22,257 nucleotides of DNA. Origin: Candidatus Sulfobium sp. Lineage in GTDB: Bacteria; Nitrospirota; Thermodesulfovibrionia; Thermodesulfovibrionales; UBA6898. The stretch is from positions 1-22,257 of the forward strand of contig JARRRI010000033.1 in assembly GCA_037380845.1 (NCBI GenBank). Direction: 5' to 3'. Positions 1-21,403 of the stretch are shown here, one piece after another. The position numbers and the translations under genes were made by a program. The notes below the pieces were generated by a model. The model saw only the letters and a program-made list of their open reading frames with translations. It was not told where the DNA came from and did not search any database. Numbering within the stretch: the stretch's first letter is position 1; every line of letters begins with the position of its first letter.

Positions 1-2953
1 CCGCCGTCGCTGATGTCCCTATCGGGGTGAAGTTTGTGCATCCTTTCCCGGCACACCGCTCTATCCTGTAGCCCGATACTTCCGTCTCGTCGGTAGACGC
101 TGTCCAGGTAAGGTCGATGATCGAGGGGGATGCCGCTGTTGCTGTCAGATTCGACGGTATTGACGGTGCCTCATCGGCAGGCTGCACAGTAAGGCTGACC
201 CGGCGGGAAGTGTTTCCTTCCCCGCTCGTGGAATTGACGAAGCTTACCGTAGCCGTGTGCGTACCGGCTGAAAGACTGTTTGCAGCAGACGTAAGCGAAA
301 CAACGACGCTGACGCTGTCCCCCGGGGACAGAGCCCCGGACCTGGAAGACCGGTTGATGATCGACGCCAGCCGGTCTGCTCCTGCCGAAGCCGATTTTAT
401 TTTTGCGAGCGGCATAGCTGCCATATTTATGTTCTTTCTTGCGTCCACCCAACTTCTCGACGCGGTTACCGACCAGTCAATCGGCGCATAGCCGGTGTTC
501 TTCAGGGTGTAAACCTTTCTCGAGGCAAAGGGGCCGCCTTCCAGTCCCGTCGAGACGAATTCTCCGGTGGGTGTTACCTCAAGAACACCTGGCGGCGTGT
601 ACTGTATCAGCGGCTTTTCGTAACCAATAGGACAATAGCCGGGGAGTCTCTTCTCCGTAAATACCAGGTCGATCTTTCCGCCGACACATGCCTCAATTCC
701 CGCAGAGAGGGTCCAGGACAGCGGAGGGACCCAGGCGTCCATCTTCAGGTAACCGTTCAGGCTTACGGAAGGTCCTGCTATACCGTAGAGCAGCATGGTG
801 AACTCAGGGCTGATATAGCCTCTTGCATAGGCCTCTGCGGACACGGTAGGAGGCGAAAAGGAAAAACTCTTTGTGAACCCGCCGACCGCATGCCATCCTG
901 TCTTTCTCTTGTAAACCGCTCCGACTTTCACTGATGCCTCCACTGTCACTTGCGCGGTCATTGAGGCATGAATACCGGCCTGCACACCCACATAGATGTC
1001 CGCCTGGGGCACGAGTACTATGTACCCGACCGGAATGGGTGTGAAATGCATGGTAGCTAATTTTATCCTTTTTTGGCCCTGCCAGCTGCCTTCCGCTATC
1101 ACTGCCAGACCATCACTGTTGTCCATCTCGAGAATCGCCCTGAATTGCTTGACATAAGGGACTACCCAGTGCTTCCTTCCTATACTTAACTTGAAGTCAG
1201 GTTTGAAGTCGAGTGTTATGGTGCCAACAAGTCTGACCTTGCCATACTGACTTTCATAGACCACCTTGTCTACAGTCAGGTCGATCTCCGGCTTCCCGGA
1301 GGCGGCTTTACGAACTGCTGCTACCTTGACGCCTCTTTCGAGTCGTGAAGCTCCCACGTCGACAGAGAAGTCTTCGGATGTAGCGATAAAGTCTCCTTCC
1401 TCCACCGCATCCAGCAGACTGGCATCTTCCGTCCGGACTTCGATGAGTCCTTCAGCGGATGTTGTTATGCCGACTATTCGCCGCAGGAAACCATTCCCAA
1501 TTGTACTGACGATTATATCGCCGGCCTGCAGGGTAACCAGCGTCATGATCCGGGGGTCGAAATAGTACGTCGTCCCGTCCTGCCTGACTATAAGGTTTAC
1601 GGCGTCTGCATCCAGCACCCTCACCGAAGGGTTGAGCGTCGTCTCTTTAAGGGTAAATGACGGCTGTACCGTCCTGTTTTTATCAATCGTGACGGTGCAT
1701 ATGTTCCCCTCGACACTGTCGCAGCCCTCCCACGAATGGAATATCGAGTCTGCATCCGGAGCGGCTGTCAGTGCGACGGTGGTGCCCGGATTATAGGATG
1801 CCGAGCAGTTATCGATGTCCTCGCTGCAGTTGATGTCATTATTATCACTTGTCACAAGACCGTTTCCGAACCTGTCTACCACGAGGGTCGATGAGGATAA
1901 TTCGGCACTCCAGAAAAAGTAAGTCTCTGTGGATCCGGCCGGCGTTACCACCAGATAGAATTTGTACGTCCCGGGGGGAAGTTCTGCCAGAGAGATATCG
2001 GACAAGACGATTTCCGATACAGGGCCGGTGATATTTTCTTTCCACTTCACAAGTCCTGACGACAGAGGTGAAAGTTCCATCAGCCCGTCGATCAGGTAGA
2101 TGTTCTCCGCATCTACTGCAGGCCAGTCCAGCGCAAGGTAAACATCCACGGGTGCTGAAAACTCCGGAAGCCCTATTCTCACGGTGACGTCATCCTCACC
2201 GGCGACCACAGCCCCCAGTCCGATCGGACTTGCCTCGGCCGCAATCGTACGCACGACCGGCAGAGCCGTTGCATGTGGGGCGAAAAGCTCCTGTCCCGAG
2301 GGTGGAGCCATCCGGCTGGGGGGAACCACAAAGGAAGTGCCATAGAGATTGTATTTGCCAAGATCACTGTGAGGGGTAACCATGAGATATACATAGTATG
2401 TTCCGGCTGGGAGGTCTTTTGCCGGAATGATCCCGTAGATAGATTCCTCTATTGGGGCGGTCAAGTTGTCCTTCCATTTTGCAAGTCCCGAAGAAAGGGG
2501 GGAGAGGGAAAGGTCTGCGTTGATGAGAAAGGGTTCGGGCTGCGGGGGAGCTTGAATGGCGCAGTAAACGTCTACGGGACCGGAGAACTTCGGCAGAGCG
2601 ATTTGAAGTGCAACGTCCCCACCTGCCAGGGCAACACTGCCGACGCCGATGGGCTTCATATCGGCAGCTTTCACGCCTGCCCTGGGGTACTCCACAGGAT
2701 CATAGGAAATGACCTCGGTGCCTTCAGGCAACTCAGCATCCTGAGCTTCCGCGGGTATAACGTAAAGAAGGCTCAAAATCGCCAATAAGGAGATCACAAT
2801 GAATTTCAGTTGCAGCTGCAGGCCGGCACGCTTCATTGTTAAGTCATGTTCAGTTCCTCCGGCTCTTCTTTCTCCACTGCTTTCTCTGCCGAACTCGGCT
2901 TTTACGTATTTGGATAGTTGTAAAGAATATCGGTTTCTCCTGGACGCCCCCAT
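1..2953 (-). CDS. Large secreted multidomain surface protein (signal peptide, two tandem ~140-aa domains, InlB B-repeat-like domain, long beta-rich domain, BACON-like domain, fibronectin type III); 3' end lies outside the window
   Basis: Manual translation gives a stop-free frame from ATG 2953 (SD GGAGG 5 nt upstream) or in-frame ATG 2836 to the window edge, i.e. at least 945-984 aa. Signal peptide MKRAGLQLQLKFIVISLLAILSLLYVIPAEA/QD. InlB-B-like GNGLVTS..INC..CSASYNPGTTVALTAAPDADSIFHSWEGC..CTVTIDKNRTV. BACON-like YTLKNTGYAPIDWSVTASRSWV..LSAGTHTATVSF. FN3 APSIPSNLTATAASPSIIDLTWTASTDETEVSGYRIERC. Confidence 0.9.
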   Translation of the reverse strand, partial: MGASRRNRYSLQLSKYVKAEFGRESSGERRAGGTEHDLTMKRAGLQLQLKFIVISLLAILSLLYVIPAEAQDAELPEGTEVISYDPVEYPRAGVKAADMKPIGVGSVALAGGDVALQIALPKFSGPVDVYCAIQAPPQPEPFLINADLSLSPLSSGLAKWKDNLTAPIEESIYGIIPAKDLPAGTYYVYLMVTPHSDLGKYNLYGTSFVVPPSRMAPPSGQELFAPHATALPVVRTIAAEASPIGLGAVVAGEDDVTVRIGLPEFSAPVDVYLALDWPAVDAENIYLIDGLMELSPLSSGLVKWKENITGPVSEIVLSDISLAELPPGTYKFYLVVTPAGSTETYFFWSAELSSSTLVVDRFGNGLVTSDNNDINCSEDIDNCSASYNPGTTVALTAAPDADSIFHSWEGCDSVEGNICTVTIDKNRTVQPSFTLKETTLNPSVRVLDADAVNLIVRQDGTTYYFDPRIMTLVTLQAGDIIVSTIGNGFLRRIVGITTSAEGLIEVRTEDASLLDAVEEGDFIATSEDFSVDVGASRLERGVKVAAVRKAASGKPEIDLTVDKVVYESQYGKVRLVGTITLDFKPDFKLSIGRKHWVVPYVKQFRAILEMDNSDGLAVIAEGSWQGQKRIKLATMHFTPIPVGYIVLVPQADIYVGVQAGIHASMTAQVTVEASVKVGAVYKRKTGWHAVGGFTKSFSFSPPTVSAEAYARGYISPEFTMLLYGIAGPSVSLNGYLKMDAWVPPLSWTLSAGIEACVGGKIDLVFTEKRLPGYCPIGYEKPLIQYTPPGVLEVTPTGEFVSTGLEGGPFASRKVYTLKNTGYAPIDWSVTASRSWVDARKNINMAAMPLAKIKSASAGADRLASIINRSSRSGALSPGDSVSVVVSLTSAANSLSAGTHTATVSFVNSTSGEGNTSRRVSLTVQPADEAPSIPSNLTATAASPSIIDLTWTASTDETEVSGYRIERCAGKGCTNFTPIGTSATA

Positions 2954-3075
2954 TTCAACCTCCCGGCAAAAATAAAATAACTATGTTTGTCATTAAGGAA
3001 TTCCTGTTTAAAACTTCTATGCTGATCGGGTAAGCACAGTAATCGATGAAAGATAACCTCCCCCGCATTTTCCCA

Positions 3076-3109
3076 AATGTACCTCACTGGAAGTAACAAA
3101 AAACCTACA
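3076..3109 (-). promoter_or_regulatory. Putative activator-dependent promoter of the secreted-protein gene: direct-repeat box plus -10
   Basis: Minus strand TGTAGGTTTTTTGTTAC (3109-3093), 11 nt, TACATT (3081-3076). 16/17 identical to the box at 3714-3698, with the same spacing to a TAnnnT hexamer. Confidence 0.6.
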
Positions 3110-3256
3110 GTTTGGAAGCATTCAGAAAATAGTGAAAAAACAGGACGTTACAAGGCTCAATCTGCAATGACCCGCCCCCGGGCTTTGACTGCTTTTCCTG
3201 TGTTGCCGACCGATCGTTATCCTCCTCCCTCCCTTCAGTGTTCCTTGTCCTTCCTT

Positions 3257-3673
3257 TTAAAAACGTACCCCGACGCCATAGCCCTCTGCGCCGCCAAATG
3301 GTTCTTGCCGCACCACCCTGGCCTGCCCTTTATAGGCTGAACGTTCCGGATCGATTAACAGGCTGATCACATCGTCCCGGACTACCTTGTTTTTCAGAGG
3401 GAAGAAGGCGCCCCGGTGGCTGATATTTTTCAGGAAAGATTCTTCGGTAAAGCGTTTTCCCAGGGCATTTGTCCCGGTCACTGTCACGGGAAGGACCAGG
3501 GGCAGCCGGCCTGCGACTCTCCGCTCCTGCGGAACGCAGCCCCAGAGGAAACAGAGCAGCTGCTCCGGGGAATGGAAGGCCCGACCCTCTCGTCCTTCTG
3601 CGTCTTCCACGGTCCCAACCAGTCTTCCCTCATCAGGCACTCGATCATAAATCCGCACGATGTAGTAGTACAC
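3257..3673 (-). CDS. Small protein: ~45-aa N-terminal YIVRIY..LVGxVE..AF domain fused to a PilZ domain
   Basis: PilZ signatures RxxxR (ERRVAGR) and (D/N)xSxxG (NISHRG), C-terminal beta strands GQARVVR..YGVGVRF. The track start is GTG 3682, but that overlaps the predicted -10, so GTG 3673 is preferred. Confidence 0.8.
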   Translation of the reverse strand: MYYYIVRIYDRVPDEGRLVGTVEDAEGREGRAFHSPEQLLCFLWGCVPQERRVAGRLPLVLPVTVTGTNALGKRFTEESFLKNISHRGAFFPLKNKVVRDDVISLLIDPERSAYKGQARVVRQEPFGGAEGYGVGVRF

Positions 3674-3680
3674 GAGGAAC

Positions 3681-3714
3681 ACTTTAACTGATGGGGGGTA
3701 ACAAAAAACTTACA
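3681..3714 (-). promoter_or_regulatory. Putative activator-dependent, probably leaderless promoter of the PilZ-fusion gene
   Basis: Minus strand TGTAAGTTTTTTGTTAC (3714-3698), 11 nt, TAAAGT (3686-3681), 7 nt, GTG (3673). Confidence 0.6.
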
Positions 3715-3834
3715 AAACCGGAAGCCGCTCCGAAGATATTTAAAAAAGGGGTTGCAGGGCAGACAAGCGAAATTGTACCGCAAAAAAGGGTGAGATCATA
3801 ATCAACTGAGTTTAAGAAGGCTTCAAAACAGTGG

Positions 3835-6800
3835 TTATTTCTTATCGGAAGGCCTTCCGTTTCCCTTGATTTCCCGGAACATGGCCTTCATTCTAACGGA
3901 AGGTTCGATCTCAAGCTGGCTGGCAAAGATTTCCTCACAGCGCCTATAAGTAGCGAGAGCTTCGGCCATCCGACCCAGGCTCCGATAGCATTCCATCATG
4001 TGCTCGTAAAATTCTTCCACCAGATAGTCTACCTCGACGCCCTTCTGATAACATTCTACGGCCCGGTCAAACCGGTCGGAACGTTCCCAGTACTTCCCCA
4101 GTTTCAGCGCGATCCGCACAAACTTGCTCCGAAGCCGCTCCCTCACACCTGTCGCCCATGACGCATTGGGTTCATTGGAGAGAAATGATCCTTTGTACAA
4201 CTTGAACGCCGTCTCCGTTGTTTCGAGGCCTTCCGCCGTCGTCTCCCTCCCCAAAGATTCAGCCTCCGATACCAGCCTCTCAAAGGCCCAGGAATCCGCC
4301 CAGCAATGCCTGGGACTCAGTGTCAGCCGTCCGTCCTTCAGAACGATGGCATCTTCCCCCACGATCCGGCGCAGCCGATACAGAGTGGTCGTAGAGGCCC
4401 TTCGGGCAGCGTCCCCTTCGGCTTCCGGCCAGAGGGTGTCGGCTACACGTCCTTCGCTCACATCCCTTCCCCCAAGTGCTACAAGTAGCTTCAGCATCTC
4501 CAGAGGTTTTCCACCTTTCCCGTTCCTAAGCGCCTGGGGCTTTCCCTCACATACAGCAGAAAAACGACCCAACGTATACACCTTCAGCTTCCAGGGCCAG
4601 GCCTCGATCTGAAGCGGGAGGACCTCTGGCGTCAAGCCTCGTTTTCGAATGAGGTCGCGGACGTAATCCACCTCGATGCCCGACTCCAGGGCCTTCGCGC
4701 AGAGCATCGACATAGCCTGCCTGCGCCAGAGGATCCAGGTATTTACGAACCCTTCCTTCCTTCCGACAGTCATTGCTCCACGGAGGAAATTCATGGAAGC
4801 TTCGCGGTCACGCTCCACGGCAAATTCCGCTCGGGCCAGGAGGCACATAAATTCGAACATAGAGCTCTTTCTGCGGTGTCCTATGCTGCGGGATTTCGCA
4901 ACACAGTCAACAGCTCTTTCATCGTCTCCTAAGGCATGGAGTATATGTGCCCTAAGAAGAGAGCTGAGTGCAACGCCGAAAAAATCTCCAATCTGTTCTA
5001 CCATTTCCATGGCAGCATCAACATAACGTCCGGCCTCATTCAACCTGCCCTGCAAAAAGGCCAACCAAGCCGTAAGAAAATAATAAAACGACAGATCCCA
5101 TGGCCGCACACCGCCAATTGGGGTCCTTATTTTTACAAGCAGCCTTTCCGCCTCCGCTTCATCTCCCTCCCCAAGCGCGCTGATTATTCCGTTTCCGAGA
5201 ATCATGAAGTCCATGACATGAACACCGGTAGTGCGCGCAAGCTCAATACTCTTTTTGACGGTTTCAAGGCATTCATCGTATCGGGCAACAAGGTTACAAT
5301 ATAAAACTTTTGCCAATGCAGCATTTAACTGTGCCAGTGGGGGCAAATCCGAGGATTGCACAAGCTCGTTCACCGAATCGAGAACGCGTTCACTTCCTGA
5401 GACGTCACCAGTTCTCACACGATCAAACAGGAAAACCAGGAGGGCCTGTGTCCTGGCAACCCCGTCCACTCCTTTTTGAGCGAGAGCGCGCTCTGCCCAT
5501 TTGTCGAACTCGGGATGCTCCGGTTTTCTGTGCACCAAAGCCATAAACATGCTCGAGGCCACGCGAGCTTCTACGGCTTCAGAGGGGAAAGCCACGAATT
5601 TCTCTATGACGGACTTGAACCGGTATATCCAGGGGTCCAGACGCCTGAAATTTTCGAAACCATATACAATGGAATCCACTACTCCGGACCATGAAAGAAA
5701 GGCGCCTGCCGCGTTCCCAGAAACAAAAAAATCATTAAATGCTTTTTCGAAATTCTTTCGGCTTTGTTGCTGGTTATAAGGCAGGTAGCAGACCCCTCTC
5801 CAGTAAATAAGCCAGGGCGCATCGTTCACAAGCTCCCGCGGAAGGTTTCCCAACCACCTCTCAAGGAGACTGAATCGCCCTTGCACGGCAAGCAAAGGCG
5901 CCTGACTCAGGATCAATCTAATCAGCTGCTGCCAGTCCTCTGCTTCGATGAGTAGTCTCGCTGCGTCTTCAAGATGACCCTCCTCCTCCAGAACCTTTGC
6001 CGCCTGTCTTTGGAGGCCGGCCAACTCTTTTCTGCTAAACCTCTCCTCGGCTTTGTCAAGGAGGAATTCCCTAAACAACGGATGGTATTGGTACCTCAGT
6101 CCGGGCCGCCTGTCAGTAAAGTAATTATTACGGAAGAAGGCATTCAAGATACGGTTCGCTTCTTTAAGACCGCTCATCGCCTCGGCAGATCGCGGCGTCA
6201 TGGAGGGCAGCAATGCCGTCTTAAGTAGAAACTCCCGCGTCTTGGTATCAGTCCCCTCCAGGATCTCCCCCGCGAAATAGTCGAAAACCTCTTCGAACGT
6301 GGCAGACCTTTGTTCATCCATAATACCGGTCCCTCTTTGTGTGAGCAGCACAACACCAGCCGCCCACCCGGCAGTTCGCTCATGGAGGTCCTGAAATGCC
6401 TTGGCAGAAAAACTTTTCCTTGCATGAAGCTTCGCCAGTTCTTTTGATTCATTTTCCCTGAGCCGCAAATCTTCCCACTCCACAAAGAAAATCGTCTCGC
6501 TGGCGCAAAGACGGGCGAACTCCTTCGGCGGGAACAAACGGCTCAGTACTATTACCGAAATTCCCTCAGGAATTGACGAGAAGCCATGGGAAAGAGCCTC
6601 GTGGAGCGCAGAAACGGCGGAGACTTCCTGGTAGTTGTCGAGAACTATGAGTGAGGGAACGTAAAGCCTCCCTGTGAGGTCTTCGAAAAAGCGTCTGGTA
6701 AAGGTTGGCACATGATACTCGGGGGTGAGAAGCGGTAACGGCCTTTTCTTTCGGGGAGCGGTCTTCGTTCCTGCAAGGCCCATGTAATAGAAGAAAGTTG

Positions 6801-7017
6801 CCAGGTCAGAGTCGCCCCCATCCATTTGATACCAGAGCGAGGGCAGTTTGCGAGATTGCACGTAGCTGCTCAAGAGGGTGGTCTTGCCGGAACCCGGCGG
6901 CCCCGATACCCAGACGACGGCATGTCTGCGCCCGCTGTCAAGCAACCTGAAGAGCCGTCCCCTCTCCAGCACCTCTTTCAAGGTCGGACGCGTTATTTTG
7001 GCAGGAAAGCGCCCCAA
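3835..7017 (-). CDS. MalT-like STAND ATPase / TPR transcriptional activator with C-terminal OmpR-type wHTH and BTAD domain
   Basis: 1060 aa. MalT-type N-terminus AKITRP..RGRL, Walker A GPPGSGKTT, Walker B LIVLDNY, TAGWAAG, YQYHPLFREFL, helical sensor region. SARP-like C-terminus KVYTLGRF..LWPEAEGDAA..TLYRLRR..LYKGSFL..RERLR..EEFYEHMMECY. TTG start, exact start uncertain. Confidence 0.9.
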   Translation of the reverse strand: MGRFPAKITRPTLKEVLERGRLFRLLDSGRRHAVVWVSGPPGSGKTTLLSSYVQSRKLPSLWYQMDGGDSDLATFFYYMGLAGTKTAPRKKRPLPLLTPEYHVPTFTRRFFEDLTGRLYVPSLIVLDNYQEVSAVSALHEALSHGFSSIPEGISVIVLSRLFPPKEFARLCASETIFFVEWEDLRLRENESKELAKLHARKSFSAKAFQDLHERTAGWAAGVVLLTQRGTGIMDEQRSATFEEVFDYFAGEILEGTDTKTREFLLKTALLPSMTPRSAEAMSGLKEANRILNAFFRNNYFTDRRPGLRYQYHPLFREFLLDKAEERFSRKELAGLQRQAAKVLEEEGHLEDAARLLIEAEDWQQLIRLILSQAPLLAVQGRFSLLERWLGNLPRELVNDAPWLIYWRGVCYLPYNQQQSRKNFEKAFNDFFVSGNAAGAFLSWSGVVDSIVYGFENFRRLDPWIYRFKSVIEKFVAFPSEAVEARVASSMFMALVHRKPEHPEFDKWAERALAQKGVDGVARTQALLVFLFDRVRTGDVSGSERVLDSVNELVQSSDLPPLAQLNAALAKVLYCNLVARYDECLETVKKSIELARTTGVHVMDFMILGNGIISALGEGDEAEAERLLVKIRTPIGGVRPWDLSFYYFLTAWLAFLQGRLNEAGRYVDAAMEMVEQIGDFFGVALSSLLRAHILHALGDDERAVDCVAKSRSIGHRRKSSMFEFMCLLARAEFAVERDREASMNFLRGAMTVGRKEGFVNTWILWRRQAMSMLCAKALESGIEVDYVRDLIRKRGLTPEVLPLQIEAWPWKLKVYTLGRFSAVCEGKPQALRNGKGGKPLEMLKLLVALGGRDVSEGRVADTLWPEAEGDAARRASTTTLYRLRRIVGEDAIVLKDGRLTLSPRHCWADSWAFERLVSEAESLGRETTAEGLETTETAFKLYKGSFLSNEPNASWATGVRERLRSKFVRIALKLGKYWERSDRFDRAVECYQKGVEVDYLVEEFYEHMMECYRSLGRMAEALATYRRCEEIFASQLEIEPSVRMKAMFREIKGNGRPSDKK

Positions 7018-7098: not shown

Positions 7099-8280
7099 CT
7101 ATTCGGTCCCTCCGGCAACGCCCTCAGCGTCTTCTTCTTTTTGCTTCTCATAGATGAGCTGGAATAATCTCAGAGCCCTTTCCGGGTCTGTCACCTTAAG
7201 CTTCCTGTATTCCTTCATCGCCGAATCTCTTTCACCTGCAAAGAGGTAGGCAATTGCGAGGTTAAAGCGCGCTTCGTCGTAATCGGGCTTCAACTGGAGG
7301 GCCTTCTCGAATTCCTTGACAGCTTTATCATACATCCCCATGTCCATCCCGTATATCACGCCGATGTTGTTGTAAATGCCGGCGGACCCGGGTCTGAGGG
7401 CGGCGGCGTCCCTGTAAGCCTCTATGGCGTCCGCGTACATTCCCAATCTCGAATAGGCCCATCCGAGCATTACGAACGCCCTGGCATTTTCCGGTTCCTG
7501 TTCTACGAGCGACTTGGCTTTTTCGAGTTCCAACTCCAGCTCATCCGTGCCCGGACCGGGCTCTTCTTCCGAGCGGGATTCGTCCAGGCCCAGTGGTTCC
7601 GATTTCCTGTACTCCTTCAGAAGATCTGCAATATAAACGGAGGGAATAAGCCGGTCCGTAACGGCGCCGTCCTTCGTCTCCCGCTCCAGCATGGCCACTA
7701 CGCAGCCTTTCTGATTGAACACCGGTCCCCCGCCGGTCCCGGCCGGAGAGGGCGGATTCAGAAGGACGGTGTCCTTGTCCTCCGCTGAGGCGACCGCCTT
7801 TCTTTCAACAACGGGCTGTCCGGAATCGGTCCGCCCGCTTTCGATGAAGACCGTTTCACCCGGCACAGGGGGGCCGTCGGGGCAAAGTCTCACCATGGGT
7901 GGATCAACCAGGTCGATTTTCAGGAGAACGATGCCGTGGGGCTTGTCGACTGCGAGCACCCGGTCAGTCTGGATGTATGACCCTTCCGCGGTCCTGACGA
8001 ACAGGATGTTTCCGGGCCCCGGAACTGTGCTGAAAATTGGCATGTACGGGACAGCAACGACGCCGCCTTTGTCTACAAAGAATCCCTTTGTGATGCCCGC
8101 CTGCCTGCTTCCTACCTTGCCTGAATAGATCGTCACCAGAGCCGCCCTCTGTCGAATGACGACGGTCGGTACGTCGGCGTATGAGTATGATGGTGCCGTG
8201 TGCTGCAGGACGAGGAAGAATGACACCCACATTGCCAGCAGTGCTCCGTTCTTCGTAATGCGGCTGGATGACATGCGCAT
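7099..8280 (-). CDS. Exported trypsin-like (S1C-like) domain + TPR repeat protein, catalytically degenerate
   Basis: 393 aa. Hydrophobic N-terminus, trypsin-2-like KGFFVDKGGVV..PAGTGGGPVFNQKGCVVAM, then about three TPRs (AFVMLGWAYSRLGMYADAIEAY; IYNNIGVIY; ARFNLAIAY). Confidence 0.8.
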   Translation of the reverse strand: MRMSSSRITKNGALLAMWVSFFLVLQHTAPSYSYADVPTVVIRQRAALVTIYSGKVGSRQAGITKGFFVDKGGVVAVPYMPIFSTVPGPGNILFVRTAEGSYIQTDRVLAVDKPHGIVLLKIDLVDPPMVRLCPDGPPVPGETVFIESGRTDSGQPVVERKAVASAEDKDTVLLNPPSPAGTGGGPVFNQKGCVVAMLERETKDGAVTDRLIPSVYIADLLKEYRKSEPLGLDESRSEEEPGPGTDELELELEKAKSLVEQEPENARAFVMLGWAYSRLGMYADAIEAYRDAAALRPGSAGIYNNIGVIYGMDMGMYDKAVKEFEKALQLKPDYDEARFNLAIAYLFAGERDSAMKEYRKLKVTDPERALRLFQLIYEKQKEEDAEGVAGGTE

Positions 8281-9173: not shown

Positions 9174-10514
9174 TCAGATGATGCCGTATTTCTTGAGTTT
9201 AAGGTAAAGTGTTTTTCTGTCAATCCCGAGGATCTGGCTTGCTCTTGACTGGTTGCCCCCGGCTTCATTCAGCACCCTGAGGATATATTCTTTTTCCCAT
9301 TCTTCAAGTGAGGGCTGAGCACTTTTCGCTTTGGCAGAAACGTCTGCGGGAATGGAAAGATCTTCCTGCCTGATCTTTTCGCCGTCGCACAGAATGACCG
9401 ACCTCTCGACTACATTTTCCAGCTCCCTCACGTTTCCGGGCCAGTTATAGTCGTTTAATCTCTCCATTGCCTCCGGCGTGTAGCCCTTTACCGGCTTGGA
9501 CAATTTTCCGGCATATTTTCCAAGGAAATAGCGGGCAAGTTCGGGAATGTCTTCCCTGCGTTCCCTCAAAGGCGGAATGGTTATGTTTATGACATTCAGC
9601 CTGTAGAAAAGGTCTTCTCTGAACGTTCCTTCTCTTACCAGATCAACGAGATTCTTGTTGGTCGCCGCGATGATCCTCACGTCCACCTTGAGAGTCCTGT
9701 TACTGCCGACCCGTCTGAACTCGCCGGAGTCCAGAAATCTGAGCAGCTTGGCCTGAAGCCCCAGCGGCATTTCCCCTATCTCATCGAGGAAGAGCGTCCC
9801 CTTGTCGGCCACTTCAACTATCCCGTGCTTTGTCTGGTAGGCGTTGGTGAAGGCCCCTTTCTCGTGGCCGAAGATTTCCGACTCTATGAGGTTCTCGGAG
9901 AGAGTGGCACAGTTCAGCGCCACCAGGGGCGAGCCGTTGCGTCTGCTGTAATGCCATATGGTATTGGCGATGAGTTCTTTACCCGTACCGCTCTCTCCCT
10001 GGATAAATACCGGGGAGTCGGTCGGGGCGATTTTCCGGATAAGGACCAGGATGTCCCGCAACTGCCTGCTCTTGTGGATGAAGGCGAAAGGGGTTTCTTT
10101 CCTTAGCAGTTCCTGTTGAAGCAGCCGGTTCTGTATGCTCAGTCTGCCGAATTCATACGCCCTGTTGATGACAATCGTCAGTTCATCCAGTTTGTAAGGT
10201 TTGGTCAGATAATCGTAGGCCCCGTTCTTCATCGCCTCGACCGCCGTTTCAACCGTAGCCTTCCCGGTAAGGACTATTATGACGGGCGAAGAAGGGTCCG
10301 TCTTCATTTTTTTCATGAGGGTAATCCCGTCGATTTCCGGCATCACGATATCCAGCAGGATGACGTCGAAGGTTGCTTTTTTCAGCAGGGAAAGGGCAGA
10401 TTTGCCGTCGGACGCGGTTTCTACGAAAAAGCCTTTCCTTGCGAGTTCCTTCCTGAGAAGCCTCCTGAGAGGCTCCTCATCATCGACGACAAGAATCTTT
10501 ATCGTCTCTTGCAT
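9174..10514 (-). CDS. Sigma54-dependent response regulator (NtrC/ZraR/AtoC family: REC-AAA+-Fis HTH)
   Basis: 446 aa. REC VVDDE..LLDIVMP..KP, Walker A GESGTGKE, ESEIFGHEKGAFTNA, LFLDEIGE, FREDLFYRLNV, WPGNVRELEN, HTH NQSRASQILGIDRKTLYLKL. Confidence 0.95.
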   Translation of the reverse strand: MQETIKILVVDDEEPLRRLLRKELARKGFFVETASDGKSALSLLKKATFDVILLDIVMPEIDGITLMKKMKTDPSSPVIIVLTGKATVETAVEAMKNGAYDYLTKPYKLDELTIVINRAYEFGRLSIQNRLLQQELLRKETPFAFIHKSRQLRDILVLIRKIAPTDSPVFIQGESGTGKELIANTIWHYSRRNGSPLVALNCATLSENLIESEIFGHEKGAFTNAYQTKHGIVEVADKGTLFLDEIGEMPLGLQAKLLRFLDSGEFRRVGSNRTLKVDVRIIAATNKNLVDLVREGTFREDLFYRLNVINITIPPLRERREDIPELARYFLGKYAGKLSKPVKGYTPEAMERLNDYNWPGNVRELENVVERSVILCDGEKIRQEDLSIPADVSAKAKSAQPSLEEWEKEYILRVLNEAGGNQSRASQILGIDRKTLYLKLKKYGII

Positions 10515-12954
10515 TGGTCGGTAACTTTATGACGAAGGTTGTGCCGTCTTCTTCCCTGCTCTCTACGTCGATACTGCCGCCGTGTTCCTCGACAATCTTA
10601 TGGCAGATTGCGAGTCCGAGACCGGTGCCGTCACCCACCGGTTTGGTGGTAAAGAATGGGTCGAATACCTTGTCTACGACGTCCGCCGGAATGCCGGAAC
10701 CGGTATCGGTTACCGAAACCGTTATCTGCCCGGAATCTTCGGCGTTGTTTACCCCTGCGCCACTGTCGTCCATCCCGGTGGTGATGACGATGCTCCCCTT
10801 CTGGGGCGTGTAATAAATTGAATTGATTATGATGTTCATGAAAAGCTGTCTCAGGCTTCCGGGATCTGCGCATATAACCGGCAGGTCCCTGTTAAGCCTG
10901 AGTTCTATGTTGTGGCTGAGCCGCTTGGCCTTATGGTTGACCAGGAGGATAACTTCCTTTATAAGTTCATTGATGTCGATCTCCCTGAAGGTCGAGGAAG
11001 AGGGCCTCGCGAAATCGAGGAGGCTCCTCAGTATCCCCTTGCAACGGAAGATCTCGCTGTGGATAGTCGTCAGGTATTCCGGAAAGTCCTCGAATTCCGG
11101 AAGATCGAGAAGCCGCTTGTCCTTTGCCCTGTCGATGAGGGCCTCGGAGTATCCCGCAATGATACCCAGGGGGTTGTTTATTTCGTGGGCGATACCGGCC
11201 ACAAGGGTTCCCAGGGAAGCCAGCCGGTCGGACCTTATGAGCTGCTGTTCGAGTCTTTTTTGTGCGGTTACGTCTTTCACGTAGTGGACGATCGCATAGA
11301 GACGCCCTTCCTCGTCGATGAGCGGGTACGTCCAGAAGTCAAAGATGTTTCCGCCTGCCGCCTTGATCTCGGTGAAAGAAGGCCGATGGGTGGCCAGGGT
11401 ATCCTTGCAGAGACACCCGATCCCGGTTATCCCGATCTTCTCCAGGATCCGGCTGCAGCGCTTTCCCGAGGCCTCCATTGCGGAGAGGCCCGTCTTCTGC
11501 AGCAGGGTCCGGTTGGCACGGATGACGCGCTGCCATCCGTCTTCTATCCAGACCATGTCGGTAATGGCGTCGAACGTCTTTTCCCACTCCCTTTTTTCCC
11601 TTGATATCTGCTCAAAGAGGAGTGCGTTTTCCAGAGCGACCGATATATGCTTGGCGGCGGGCAGAAGTATCTGGAGGTCCTTTTCCGAATACTTGCCGGG
11701 CTCCGTGCTGTCGAGATTGAAGACCCCGATAATCTTGTCGTGATAAAGGGGTATGCTGATAGTCGATCTTATGCCCTCGTCGAAGAGCTTCCTGTCCAGG
11801 GGGAAGGCCGCCCCGGACAGGTCATTATTGATCCAGGGCTTGTTGTGCGTTATGACCCATCCCGCGCTTGTGCCCTTGATGGGGGCTTTTACCCCTTTTT
11901 TCATCACAGTCGGCAATTTAGTATCGAGGGCGAAGATTAGCAGGTTATTCTTTTTTTCATTGTAAAGGAGGAGACTTGCCCTGCTGTAATCTATCAGTTT
12001 TCTTATCTCGGACACCATGATCCTGAAGAGTGTGCCGATGCTCAGACTGGAATTGATGATGCCGCTGAGTTCGTTAATAAGCTTTATGTGGCTTACCTTG
12101 TTCTGCAGCTGGGCGATCAGGCCGGTATTTTCTATTGCGACTCCGAGAAGACTTCCGATGGTCGAAAGAAGCTGGGCATCCAGAGATGTAAAGTACGAGC
12201 CCCGCCTGCTTGCGACCCCCAGGACGCCCCGGGTGACGCCCCGGGAGGATATCGGGACCCCTATCATGCTCTCCATACCGGCGGCCCTGTGTGTTATCCT
12301 GGGATCATCGGACATCTTCTTTACGAGCAGGGACCTCCCCGACGCGAAGACCTTTCCGTTGAAGCACTCACCCGGCTTCAGGCTCCTTACCTCGTCTGCA
12401 AATTCGGGCGCGAGACCCTTCCGGGCCTTCAGGTGTATTTTGCCGGTTTCATCATCGAAGAGATAGATCCAGCCGGCGTCGGCTTCCATAAGGGGGAGGA
12501 GCATATCAATGGTTTTCTGCATGATCTTCTTCGTATCGGAGTGGCTGGTCAGAACTGCGGCAAAGTTGTTTATTACCGAGAGCTCCTTCGTCCTCTGGGC
12601 GGCCCGCTGCTGCAGCTTTTTTCGGTCGGAGATGTCCTGCGTGACAACCAGCCTGCGCCCGTCGGGGTAAGGGATAAAGGTGACCCGGGCGGCAAAAAGC
12701 TCTCCGTTTTTTCTCCTGCAGGCGGATTCGTGATGAACGCCTGCAGCCTTCTCGTCGGGCTGTCCGTCCACCAGAATTACCAGTTCGGAAAGGGTGCGGC
12801 CGACGATTTCGCCCGCCTTATAGCCAAACGCCTTCTCGGCGACCAGGTTGCAGGAAAGGACGGCAAGGTTTTTGTCGACCACAAAGGCCGGCATTTCAAG
12901 GTAATCGAAGGCATCGGGATTTATATGGGCCTTTTTTTCAGTGACGGACGACAT
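10480..12954 (-). CDS. Cytoplasmic PAS-GAF-GAF-PAS sensor histidine kinase (NtrB-like)
   Basis: 824 aa. H-box AHEINNPL, N-box QLFMNIIINS, DTGSGI, FDPFFTTK, GTGLGL. Two GAF and two PAS-like segments, no transmembrane helix. Overlaps the response regulator start by 35 nt. Confidence 0.93.
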   Translation of the reverse strand: MSSVTEKKAHINPDAFDYLEMPAFVVDKNLAVLSCNLVAEKAFGYKAGEIVGRTLSELVILVDGQPDEKAAGVHHESACRRKNGELFAARVTFIPYPDGRRLVVTQDISDRKKLQQRAAQRTKELSVINNFAAVLTSHSDTKKIMQKTIDMLLPLMEADAGWIYLFDDETGKIHLKARKGLAPEFADEVRSLKPGECFNGKVFASGRSLLVKKMSDDPRITHRAAGMESMIGVPISSRGVTRGVLGVASRRGSYFTSLDAQLLSTIGSLLGVAIENTGLIAQLQNKVSHIKLINELSGIINSSLSIGTLFRIMVSEIRKLIDYSRASLLLYNEKKNNLLIFALDTKLPTVMKKGVKAPIKGTSAGWVITHNKPWINNDLSGAAFPLDRKLFDEGIRSTISIPLYHDKIIGVFNLDSTEPGKYSEKDLQILLPAAKHISVALENALLFEQISREKREWEKTFDAITDMVWIEDGWQRVIRANRTLLQKTGLSAMEASGKRCSRILEKIGITGIGCLCKDTLATHRPSFTEIKAAGGNIFDFWTYPLIDEEGRLYAIVHYVKDVTAQKRLEQQLIRSDRLASLGTLVAGIAHEINNPLGIIAGYSEALIDRAKDKRLLDLPEFEDFPEYLTTIHSEIFRCKGILRSLLDFARPSSSTFREIDINELIKEVILLVNHKAKRLSHNIELRLNRDLPVICADPGSLRQLFMNIIINSIYYTPQKGSIVITTGMDDSGAGVNNAEDSGQITVSVTDTGSGIPADVVDKVFDPFFTTKPVGDGTGLGLAICHKIVEEHGGSIDVESREEDGTTFVIKLPTNARDDKDSCRR

Positions 12955-20665: not shown

Positions 20666-21403
20666 TCACTTTCGTATGACCCTGCCTGTCGGCTGCCACC
20701 CCTGGACCTTCTTCTGCGGGTGATAGCTCTCGACTATATCCCCGACCTTTATCCTGCTGAAGTTTCTTAGCTTTATGCCTACGCGCTGACCGGGCGACGC
20801 GGTCTGAACCGCATGCTCGCCTATATGGAGCGACTCCATGGTGCCGGAATAAACGGGTCCCATGGCGGAGACGATGCGAAAGTGCTGGCCCACGGCAAGA
20901 CGGCCTTCTGTTACTTCGCACCCCGCAATGATCCCCCTTCTGCTGCTTTTGAAAAGGGCTATCACTTTTGCGGAACCCGTGATCTGCTCGGTGGGACCGT
21001 GGGGAAGTATGGCTTCGGCGAGGACCTTCAGGTCCTCAGTCAACGCATAGATGACATCGTAGAGCCTGACCTCGACGTTACGCTCCCTCAGCGCCTTCTC
21101 GACGCCGGAAAGAACATCCACCCCGAAGCCTATTATCAGCCTGCCCGCCGTTTCCGCAAGGAATGCGTCCGACGTGGTGACGGCACCCAGTCCCTGCCGT
21201 ATGATGTCGATATCCACTCCGGCCGCTGTAATCCCGGAAATGGCGGCCGCCGCTGCCTCGAGGCTTCCTTCGGAGTCGGCTTTAAGCACGATCTCAAGCT
21301 TCGTCCCTGCCTCCCGAAACGAAGTATTCCGTCCGGTCTGCCCGGCCGTACGCCTGGAACTGCGCTGTTTTCCGGGACGAGTTTCCCTGTGTGGATGTGC
21401 CAC
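20666..21403 (-). CDS. Stand-alone translation initiation factor IF-2 C-terminal (C1+C2 domains) paralogue with no GTPase domain
   Basis: 245 aa. IVLKADSEGSLEA, GLGAVTTSDAFLA, IIGFGV, YDVIYALTEDL, GSAKVIALFK..IAGCEVTEG, IKVGDIVESY match the IF-2 C-terminal pattern. GTG start with GGGAG upstream. Confidence 0.85.
   Translation of the reverse strand: MAHPHRETRPGKQRSSRRTAGQTGRNTSFREAGTKLEIVLKADSEGSLEAAAAAISGITAAGVDIDIIRQGLGAVTTSDAFLAETAGRLIIGFGVDVLSGVEKALRERNVEVRLYDVIYALTEDLKVLAEAILPHGPTEQITGSAKVIALFKSSRRGIIAGCEVTEGRLAVGQHFRIVSAMGPVYSGTMESLHIGEHAVQTASPGQRVGIKLRNFSRIKVGDIVESYHPQKKVQGWQPTGRVIRK

Follow-up and report, generated by a model that had tools for sequence, protein, structure and literature searches.

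We analyzed a putative regulatory cassette in the window, that is, the entire 22,257-base contig JARRRI010000033.1 of a Candidatus Sulfobium sp. genome (3.18 Mb in 104 contigs, named G000 below). The cassette consists of three co-oriented genes, all on the minus strand, which encode a regulator built of a MalT-type STAND ATPase and a SARP module, a small protein ending in a PilZ domain, and a giant exported protein. An identical operator-like box lies in front of both downstream genes. The three-gene arrangement and the shared box had been proposed in a preliminary description made from the letters alone, and both are indeed present, the two boxes having a 17-nt stretch in common as exact copies. 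Comparison with related genomes indicates that the regulator, the box, and the two downstream genes are one conserved unit. By analogy with AfsR and from the anatomy of the sequences, it is probable that the regulator, gated by ligand and ATP, binds the pair of direct repeats in the box through its SARP module and recruits RNA polymerase to a promoter devoid of a -35 element. The features of the cassette and of its surroundings are collected in Table 1.

Table 1. Positions of the cassette features, of the third box operon, and of the neighboring genes (window numbering unless a contig or residues are named; ORF, open reading frame; DRup and DRdown, first and second direct repeat)
Feature	Position	Strand	Remarks
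Regulator gene, 1060 aa	7017..3835	-	ORF; NTPase and arm at residues ~1-409, MalT-like helical sensor to ~800, SARP module last
Regulator SARP module	winged helix, residues ~815-905; BTAD, residues 908-1050		C-terminal; Pfam and profile against PDB
Box 1, two 11-bp direct repeats, before small gene	3696..3717 (DRup 3717-3707, DRdown 3706-3696)	-	kept in G001 and G012
-10-like hexamer TAAAGT	3681..3686	-	begins 16 nt after the G at 3702 of repeat 2
Small gene, 138 aa from the likely GTG start 3673	3257..3673	-	ORF 3682..3257; length agrees with the window's own protein P0001
Box 2, two 11-bp direct repeats, before giant gene	3091..3112 (DRup 3112-3102, DRdown 3101-3091)	-
-10-like hexamer TACATT	3076..3081	-	16 nt after the G at 3097
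Giant exported protein, 984 aa seen	2953..2	-	runs off the contig end, within the first fn3 repeat
Third box and -10 hexamer operon, locus L141	G000:C11:2961-9967		320-aa protein with signal-like start, CHASE2 cyclase of 765 aa, FecR-TPR-TonB-barrel protein of 1145 aa
Trypsin-like domain + TPR secreted-protein gene, DsrE-like gene, sigma-54 response regulator with PAS/GAF histidine kinase	7099-8280 and 9174-12954	-	upstream of the cassette

The box and its promoters in the genome and in close relatives

Within the window, the core of the box, GTTTTTTGTTAC, is present at two minus-strand sites, 3709-3698 and 3104-3093. By chance, 0.09 copies would be expected, and two or more copies were found in none of 100 shuffles. 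The 17-nt stretch common to both boxes, TGTARGTTTTTTGTTAC, has exactly three perfect copies in the 3.18-Mb genome, the third at C11:2964-2980, and all three precede a co-oriented gene. When three mismatches were allowed, only two additional matches appeared, fewer than the 12 obtained with a reversed-pattern control. At each of the two window boxes, nine bases separate the second repeat, taken in the 11-nt register, from the -10-like hexamer. A search of 2800-3900 for a consensus sigma-70 promoter with -35 and -10 elements gave none. The third box, on contig C11, shows the identical geometry, including the distance of 16 nt. There, the first product has a signal-like start and no Pfam family in the Pfam scan, and the CHASE2 protein is an adenylate/guanylate cyclase; a cNMP-binding/GAF gene lies just upstream of this operon. 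Autoregulation of the regulator gene was considered and rejected, as the box search finds no copy upstream of it.

The cassette was compared with a genome of the same genus (G001), one of the same family (G012), and a complete genome (G104). Regulator, small gene, and giant gene follow one another in this order in G001 and G012 as well, with different genes upstream of the regulator. G001 has one box before each of the small and giant genes and a third on contig C42, before a gene whose product has a signal-peptide-like start; G012 has a single box, and its small and giant genes are only ~70 nt apart. The complete genome G104 contains the exact box a single time, at the small gene, with one-mismatch matches at the control level. 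Between its small and giant genes, G001 carries an additional 569-aa gene (L011:7480-9189) that has no box of its own; the encoded protein begins in a signal-like manner and contains four Cu-binding MopE motifs.

Over ~110 nt, all seven promoter copies found in G000, G001, and G012 can be aligned, and on this alignment they are duplicates of one promoter cassette. Its invariant columns are the repeat pair, two C after the pair, and TA.A.T. A T-rich stretch upstream of the repeat pair (window 3113-3150, minus strand) is also kept in all seven copies. In the 11-nt register this stretch contains weaker repeat-like units, CTGTTTT and CTATTTT, placed 22 and 33 nt before the first repeat, which could be further sites for an oligomer or a UP-like element.

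The promoter of the small gene in the window (3674-3686, minus strand) lacks 21 nt which in G001 and G012 carry a GGGAGG ribosome-binding site. The GTG start follows the -10 hexamer by only 7 nt because this stretch is deleted. The deletion is real: a 1039-nt contig from a separate study spans 2858-3896 without any difference, and a related strain in another run has 80 letters at the deletion site against the 59 of the window, that is, 21 more. The mRNA of the small gene would then be of the leaderless type, or the gene may be poorly translated. The giant gene has a strong GGGAGG ribosome-binding site, and its start is conserved in G012.

Regulator architecture, linkage, and repeats across the family

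The regulator combines parts of two known families. A profile built from 40 relatives and compared with the PDB matched MalT (8bob_C) over positions 6-409 (E 4.2e-65), the DT3 sensor of MalT (1hz4) over 614-781 (E 4.1e-7), AfsR (8k60_I), whose residues 25-264 align to positions 820-1065 (E 1.2e-19), and EmbR (2fez, E 2.2e-7). Pfam places BTAD at 908-1050 (3e-22), P-loop families at the N-terminus (NPHP3_N at 1.8e-6, AAA_16, AAA_22), and TPR matches. The Walker A residues G42, G44, and K45, together with D127, are invariant across the 40 relatives. The preliminary description had spoken of OmpR-type winged-helix/BTAD (SARP) domains; the BTAD part stood, and the winged helix is seen through the AfsR profile match alone, as the Pfam scan gives no Trans_reg_C match.

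The SARP family is defined by a winged helix plus BTAD, which the regulator has, and by a module at the N-terminus that any extra domains follow; here, the ATPase leads and the module occupies the final 250 residues. From the MalT/LAL definition, the N-terminal STAND NTPase with Walker A and arm is found, and the Pfam scan gives no GerE match for the C-terminal LuxR/GerE helix-turn-helix. In the NCBIfam models, MalT matches 5-407 at 3.4e-51 with 174 bits, far under the equivalog cut-off of 537, and AfsR matches 842-1048 at 3.9e-8, also far below its cut-off. The regulator is thus a MalT body carrying a SARP tail, and it belongs to neither family as defined.

AfsR of Streptomyces coelicolor likewise joins a STAND/NLR-type ATPase and a helical sensor to a SARP module, but the domain order is reversed, SARP being first in AfsR and last here, and its ATPase is of the NB-ARC rather than the MalT type: AfsR matches only 820-1065, and the best PDB match of 6-409 is MalT. 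MalT of Escherichia coli and the LAL proteins share the N-terminal NTPase with arm and the DT3-like sensor, whereas the output here is a winged helix with BTAD instead of a LuxR/GerE helix-turn-helix. MalT is an activator that binds repeated sites; the sites predicted for the present cassette differ in being 11-bp tandem repeats that replace the -35 element. EmbR of Mycobacterium tuberculosis shares the SARP module of winged helix and BTAD, but it has an FHA domain and no ATPase, while in our protein the module follows a STAND ATPase and sensor. The MalT-SARP form is present in 17 of 41 related genomes, some of which have 4 or 5 copies.

The three-gene proposal had been made to depend on linkage among homologues, and such linkage exists. 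We took ±8 kb around 78 places in Nitrospirota, all profile matches with E <=5e-8, setting aside the window's own place and ten weaker ones. Hidden Markov models (HMMs) made from regulator paralogues and from the small-protein alignment A3 detected 85 small genes in this DNA. A co-oriented SARP gene lies upstream within 5 kb for 71/85. The distance is at most 500 bp in 46 of these 71, 501-1000 bp in 4, 1001-2500 bp in 16, and larger in 5. In the metagenome sample, drawn from the best 80 of 143 confirmed loci with several near-duplicates among them, 51 of the 85 small-gene matches have a regulator upstream, 31 of them within 500 bp. Among the unlinked ones, 13 have <700 nt of DNA upstream, 18 show no regulator with <3.5 kb of room, and 3 show none with more. 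The scan for these loci was based on the narrower alignment A8, alignment A7 being too diverse. The small gene is thus nearly always accompanied by the regulator, and the converse is weaker. Two loci have an unusual layout: at L082 (G227), the small gene lies directly upstream of the regulator instead of downstream, and at L092 (G256), a short SARP-like match overlaps the small gene.

The preliminary description had also stated that SARP-type domains bind direct repeats with an 11-bp period near the -35 region, and this form recurs in the relatives of the window boxes. Counting repeats with at least 8/9 matches within 250 nt upstream of the small gene, we found the period of 11 in 51 of 84 regions, 19 of them perfect. 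Other periods were rare (4/84 for 9, 6/84 for 10, 3/84 for 12, and 4/84 for 13), as were repeats in shuffles (2/84) and in random pieces from the same loci (4/230). A pair anchored on a GT core was found in 42/84 regions, and in 33 of these 42 a TAnnnT begins exactly 16 nt after the G of repeat 2. The remaining pairs have it at 13, 18, and 24 nt (one each) or, in six cases, lack it. TG occupies the extended -10 place in 18 anchored pairs, and the leaders measure 43 nt (median) from -10 hexamer to start. Across relatives, a period of 11 bp and a distance of 16 nt are kept, and the flanks are not.

These arrangements resemble the SARP rule. [quoted passage not shown] Depending on how the register is set, our boxes fit this geometry to within 1-3 bp (PMC10936776). 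At the sequence level, the boxes of the window and of the relatives that carry the repeats therefore have the form of SARP sites. As in afsS, two 11-bp direct repeats overlap the -35 region and the -35 element is weak or absent; the distance from repeat to hexamer is 7 to 9 nt here, depending on the register, against the 6 of afsS in the numbering of that paper (PMC10936776).

Between paralogues, the repeat sequence varies along with the recognition helix of the adjacent regulator (29 distinct regulator-box pairs). Helices with DTT go with GTAAG repeats (6/6), those with TTT or TTN with GTGAC (6/6), those with EMA or EMT with GTG(A/G)G (4/4), those with EIT with GTAGG (2/2), and those with KTT or KIT with GTAAC (3/3); the rest of the 29 are singles. 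The pair of the window itself is outside the scored set, its repeats agreeing at only 6/8 positions.

The small protein and the exported proteins

The small protein begins with a ~45-aa beta-beta-beta-alpha domain (YIVRIY...LVG.VE...F...L), which a flexible linker containing RxxxR joins to a PilZ barrel. The YIVRIY stretch at its N-terminus, which had been singled out from the letters, is real, and the 45-aa domain has no family in Pfam or NCBIfam. An NCBIfam match to ActJ was dropped as weak (0.015), and the single paper that it led to is unrelated. PilZ receptors of c-di-GMP (cyclic di-GMP) carry the motifs RxxxR and (D/N)xSxxG, and the window protein has both (RRVAGR, NISHRG) in addition to the barrel. 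Pfam matches PilZ (PF07238) at 53-141 in ORF numbering, at 5.5e-7 and 30.3 bits against a cut-off of 22.5. Among 14 fused or neighboring PilZ forms, R50, R54, and S83 are invariant and G86 nearly so, and PilZ was confirmed in 10/10 fused or neighboring proteins checked. With 15 GGDEF matches in the genome, it is probable that c-di-GMP is synthesized.

The model of the 45-aa domain, built with 83 sequences, has three strands and a helix with a pLDDT (predicted local distance difference test) of 84.7. The model of the full protein has a pLDDT of 85.1 and a pTM (predicted template modeling score) of 0.58, with the linker at 43-55, RxxxR at 50-54, and a PilZ barrel of pLDDT >90. The relative orientation of the domains is not fixed by this model because of the pTM value. 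Foldseek searches with the full model had PilZ chains on top (BcsA, PA0012, MrkH, MotI, VCA0042, YcgR, Alg44, PlzA) with probability 1.00 and a best E of 1.3e-3; by sequence, the small protein found no PDB match. A dsRBD-like fold for the 45-aa domain was tried and not assigned, its VIA-align rows (Z 2.5-3.4) being tied with noise.

With the whole small protein as query, only close relatives were recovered, namely 10 proteins in a word-indexed search and 2 genome loci, with no metagenome locus, and its first 47 residues gave 6 representatives. A small profile then recovered 17 proteins, 56-111 aa long, that share this start and have ends rich in K/R. Across 401 Nitrospirota genomes, G000 included, the small-gene profile matches 57, with up to 6 matches per genome. 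The ESM Atlas returned nothing usable for the 45-aa domain of the window; for protein P0020 it returned only clusters of 68-69-aa 'hypothetical protein' at 0.87-0.88, to be read as a lead only. Tails were scored in 72 of the 85 surveyed small ORFs, with a median length of 19, a median K+R of 6, and a net positive charge in 55/72; ORFs longer than 120 aa number 5/85. PilZ replaces the tail in the window and in at least 4 other lineages. A split form was found at L108:7631-8150 (G405), where a 55-aa small gene overlaps a separate 125-aa PilZ gene by 4 nt. Two-domain PilZ adaptors (YcgR, MotI/DgrA, VCA0042/PlzD, MrkH, PlzA) likewise end in a PilZ barrel, which follows an N-terminal domain and a flexible linker containing RxxxR. 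They differ from the small protein in that its N-terminal domain is not YcgR-N-like but a new 45-aa unit mostly found without PilZ, and in that its gene lies behind a SARP-type promoter, beside its regulator.

In the giant protein, a ~40-aa extension precedes a hydrophobic stretch (signal or anchor), after which come two repeated N-terminal domains and a divergent InlB B-repeat, the protein's only Pfam match (Flg_new_2). It is 69% identical to a 1592-aa orthologue in G001, which continues with Ig_Rha78A_N and five fn3 repeats. The N-terminal extension of ~40 residues (2836-2953, minus strand) and the ribosome-binding site are kept in G001 and G012, so the extension is probably a real cytoplasmic or extended-signal segment.

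The preliminary description expected secreted multidomain genes in the neighborhood of such regulators, and exported multidomain proteins do follow the small gene. Among 76 first downstream ORFs, scanned with Pfam at E <=1e-5, 54 have a signal-peptide-like start as called by a crude hydropathy rule, many with a lipobox and then glycines, and 32 have no Pfam family. To judge from these starts and families, the gene after the small gene usually encodes an exported protein. Most of the others have families typical of exported proteins, among them beta-helix, Big_5, fn3, Ig-like, Lcl_C, Fib_succ_major, SdrD_B, and Laminin_G_3; further ones are lactonase and NHL propellers, subtilases, CsgG, Omp85, and CHASE2. 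There are giants as well, with RCC1 and FG-GAP (2538 and 2533 aa) or with a DUF5122 propeller and Big_13 (2398 aa). A minority is plainly cytoplasmic (aminotransferases, RimP, histidine kinase, T2SSE).

Elsewhere in the window, the trypsin-TPR, DsrE-like, and sigma-54/PAS/GAF neighbors are not kept beside the cassette in G001 or G012. A 245-aa ORF at 20666-21403 (minus strand) contains only C-terminal IF-2 parts (IF-2 domain, EFTU_D2) and no GTPase domain, and the ORFs adjoining it have no Pfam family.

Proposed mode of action and alternative explanations

The case for regulator-dependent activation is made by the analogy with AfsR together with the conserved anatomy, the promoter geometry, and the covariation of helix and repeat. 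In the mechanism that we propose, the regulator would be a one-component STAND switch in which ligand and ATP release the SARP module. Two SARP protomers would then sit side by side on the two 11-bp direct repeats, replacing the -35 element, and would recruit the housekeeping RNA polymerase to a promoter with a -10 hexamer only, often an extended one. The predicted targets in this genome are three promoters, those of the small gene, the giant surface protein gene, and the C11 operon. The small gene would be the most constant first target, with the genes of exported proteins in the same or a neighboring transcription unit.

The boxes might instead represent copies of a promoter that a different factor reads, for example an alternative sigma factor, the regulator being an incidental neighbor. 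The alignment of seven promoter copies over ~110 nt makes likeness by descent real; however, the repeat sequence covaries with the recognition helix of the adjacent regulator across distant paralogues, and it is the 11-bp period and the 16-nt distance that are kept, not the flanks. A tandem direct repeat is, moreover, not the form of a sigma-factor -35 element, and we regard this explanation as very improbable.

Several observations weigh against activation by the regulator, or against parts of the cassette as we describe it. A regulator is missing from the DNA examined for 14/85 small genes of the Nitrospirota sample (11 have none within 8 kb, and 3 have none with <4 kb of room upstream). Seen from the regulator side, in 19 paralogue loci with a SARP match and 1.5-kb flanks, only 8/19 hold a small gene, with 2 more at 1.6-2 kb, so the small protein is not needed by every member of the family; these figures come from HMM searches, as a plain regular expression for the small-gene motif under-detected it. 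No repeat at our threshold was found in 33/84 upstream regions. The window helix RRASTTTLY carries TTT, yet its box reads GTAAG/GTTAC, outside the triplet rule, so the helix triplet alone is no code. The helix-repeat pairing carries no statistical test, and its counts overstate independence because kin share labels by descent. The three G000 promoters, as duplicates of one cassette, are alike by descent as well as by function. Of the RNA runs searched for window 2800-4000, none contained the stretch. The small protein may be poorly made in the strain of the window because of the deleted ribosome-binding stretch. As for its domains, no fold match was found for the 45-aa unit (Foldseek best E 0.62, VIA-align best Z 3.6), and a basic tail instead of PilZ in most relatives speaks against a necessary role of PilZ.

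For the function of the small protein, we suggest, as a tentative possibility and a somewhat doubtful one, that it feeds back on the cassette that encodes it, as a partner of the regulator, with c-di-GMP modulating the PilZ forms; every copy of the regulator comes with a small-gene copy of its own, which favors a role inside the cassette. We consider it rather unlikely that the small protein binds nucleic acid as a helper of the operon to which it belongs, its basic tail (or PilZ) and its 45-aa domain contacting the long leader or DNA and so aiding elongation, anti-termination, or translation of the long downstream genes for exported proteins. Such a role would fit the basic tails (55/72 net positive, median K+R 6 in 19 residues), the first position of the small gene in operons whose next genes reach ~2400-2540 aa, and the leaders with their median of 43 nt. 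MrkH and PlzA are PilZ proteins that bind nucleic acid, and several dsRBD-like rows with Z of 2.5-3.4 occur among the structural matches. Those rows, however, tie with unrelated ones, the best Z being only 3.6, many downstream genes are short, and 17/72 tails are not net positive.

A further alternative is an AfsS-like diffusible effector that acts on other genes or on RNA polymerase, without action on its own cassette. The main target of AfsR is, as predicted here, a small gene directly downstream of the regulator gene, and in the complete genome G104 no promoter but that of the small gene has the box. The layout equals that of afsR-afsS, in which a SARP regulator of the STAND type is followed by a repeat box of 22 bp and a small gene just downstream (PMC10936776; bioRxiv 10.64898/2026.09.02.748808). 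Genomes with several regulators, on the other hand, have more than one small gene (up to 6 matches), and each of these lies behind a regulator of its own, of which a general effector has no need; moreover, an exported gene lies within a few hundred bases downstream at most loci. The small protein here is unlike AfsS, being a folded 45-aa domain to which a basic tail or PilZ is attached; the cargo consists of exported proteins rather than antibiotic pathways, and the hosts of afsR/afsS are Streptomyces, whereas this family was surveyed in Nitrospirota. An effector of this kind is an unlikely reading, more so than that of a nucleic-acid helper.

Returning to the small protein as a partner of its regulator, a more far-reaching version would have the 45-aa domain bind its own STAND regulator and close a feedback loop, with the PilZ forms gated by c-di-GMP. 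The cassette would then serve environmental Gram-negative bacteria as a general and portable switch for surface proteins, and its helix-to-repeat code could be read. This version is speculative, and we think it rather improbable. If it were true, an NLR-like ATP switch would read the level of c-di-GMP when deciding on the production of surface proteins.

SARP and MalT regulators are textbook systems, and their combination is common, yet our literature search, which was of limited coverage, gave no studied member and no paper on the MalT-SARP architecture, on the small protein, or on the PilZ link. It thus agrees with the preliminary description, which knew of no characterised system of such make-up. 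The comparison yields a predicted operator, a promoter geometry, and a first target gene for this family. New here are the fixed 16-nt geometry, the helix-repeat pairing, the deletion that makes the small gene leaderless, the PilZ fusion with its split form, and the spread of the promoter cassette to a CHASE2 cyclase locus. Across paralogues, the way in which helix and repeat type pair hints at a specificity code that can be read, and perhaps at activators that are orthogonal to one another.

In conclusion, the small protein represents a new domain family with recurrent PilZ fusion, and this fusion points to a new route by which c-di-GMP may act on surface-protein expression in uncultured sulfur-cycling Nitrospirota of marsh sediments.

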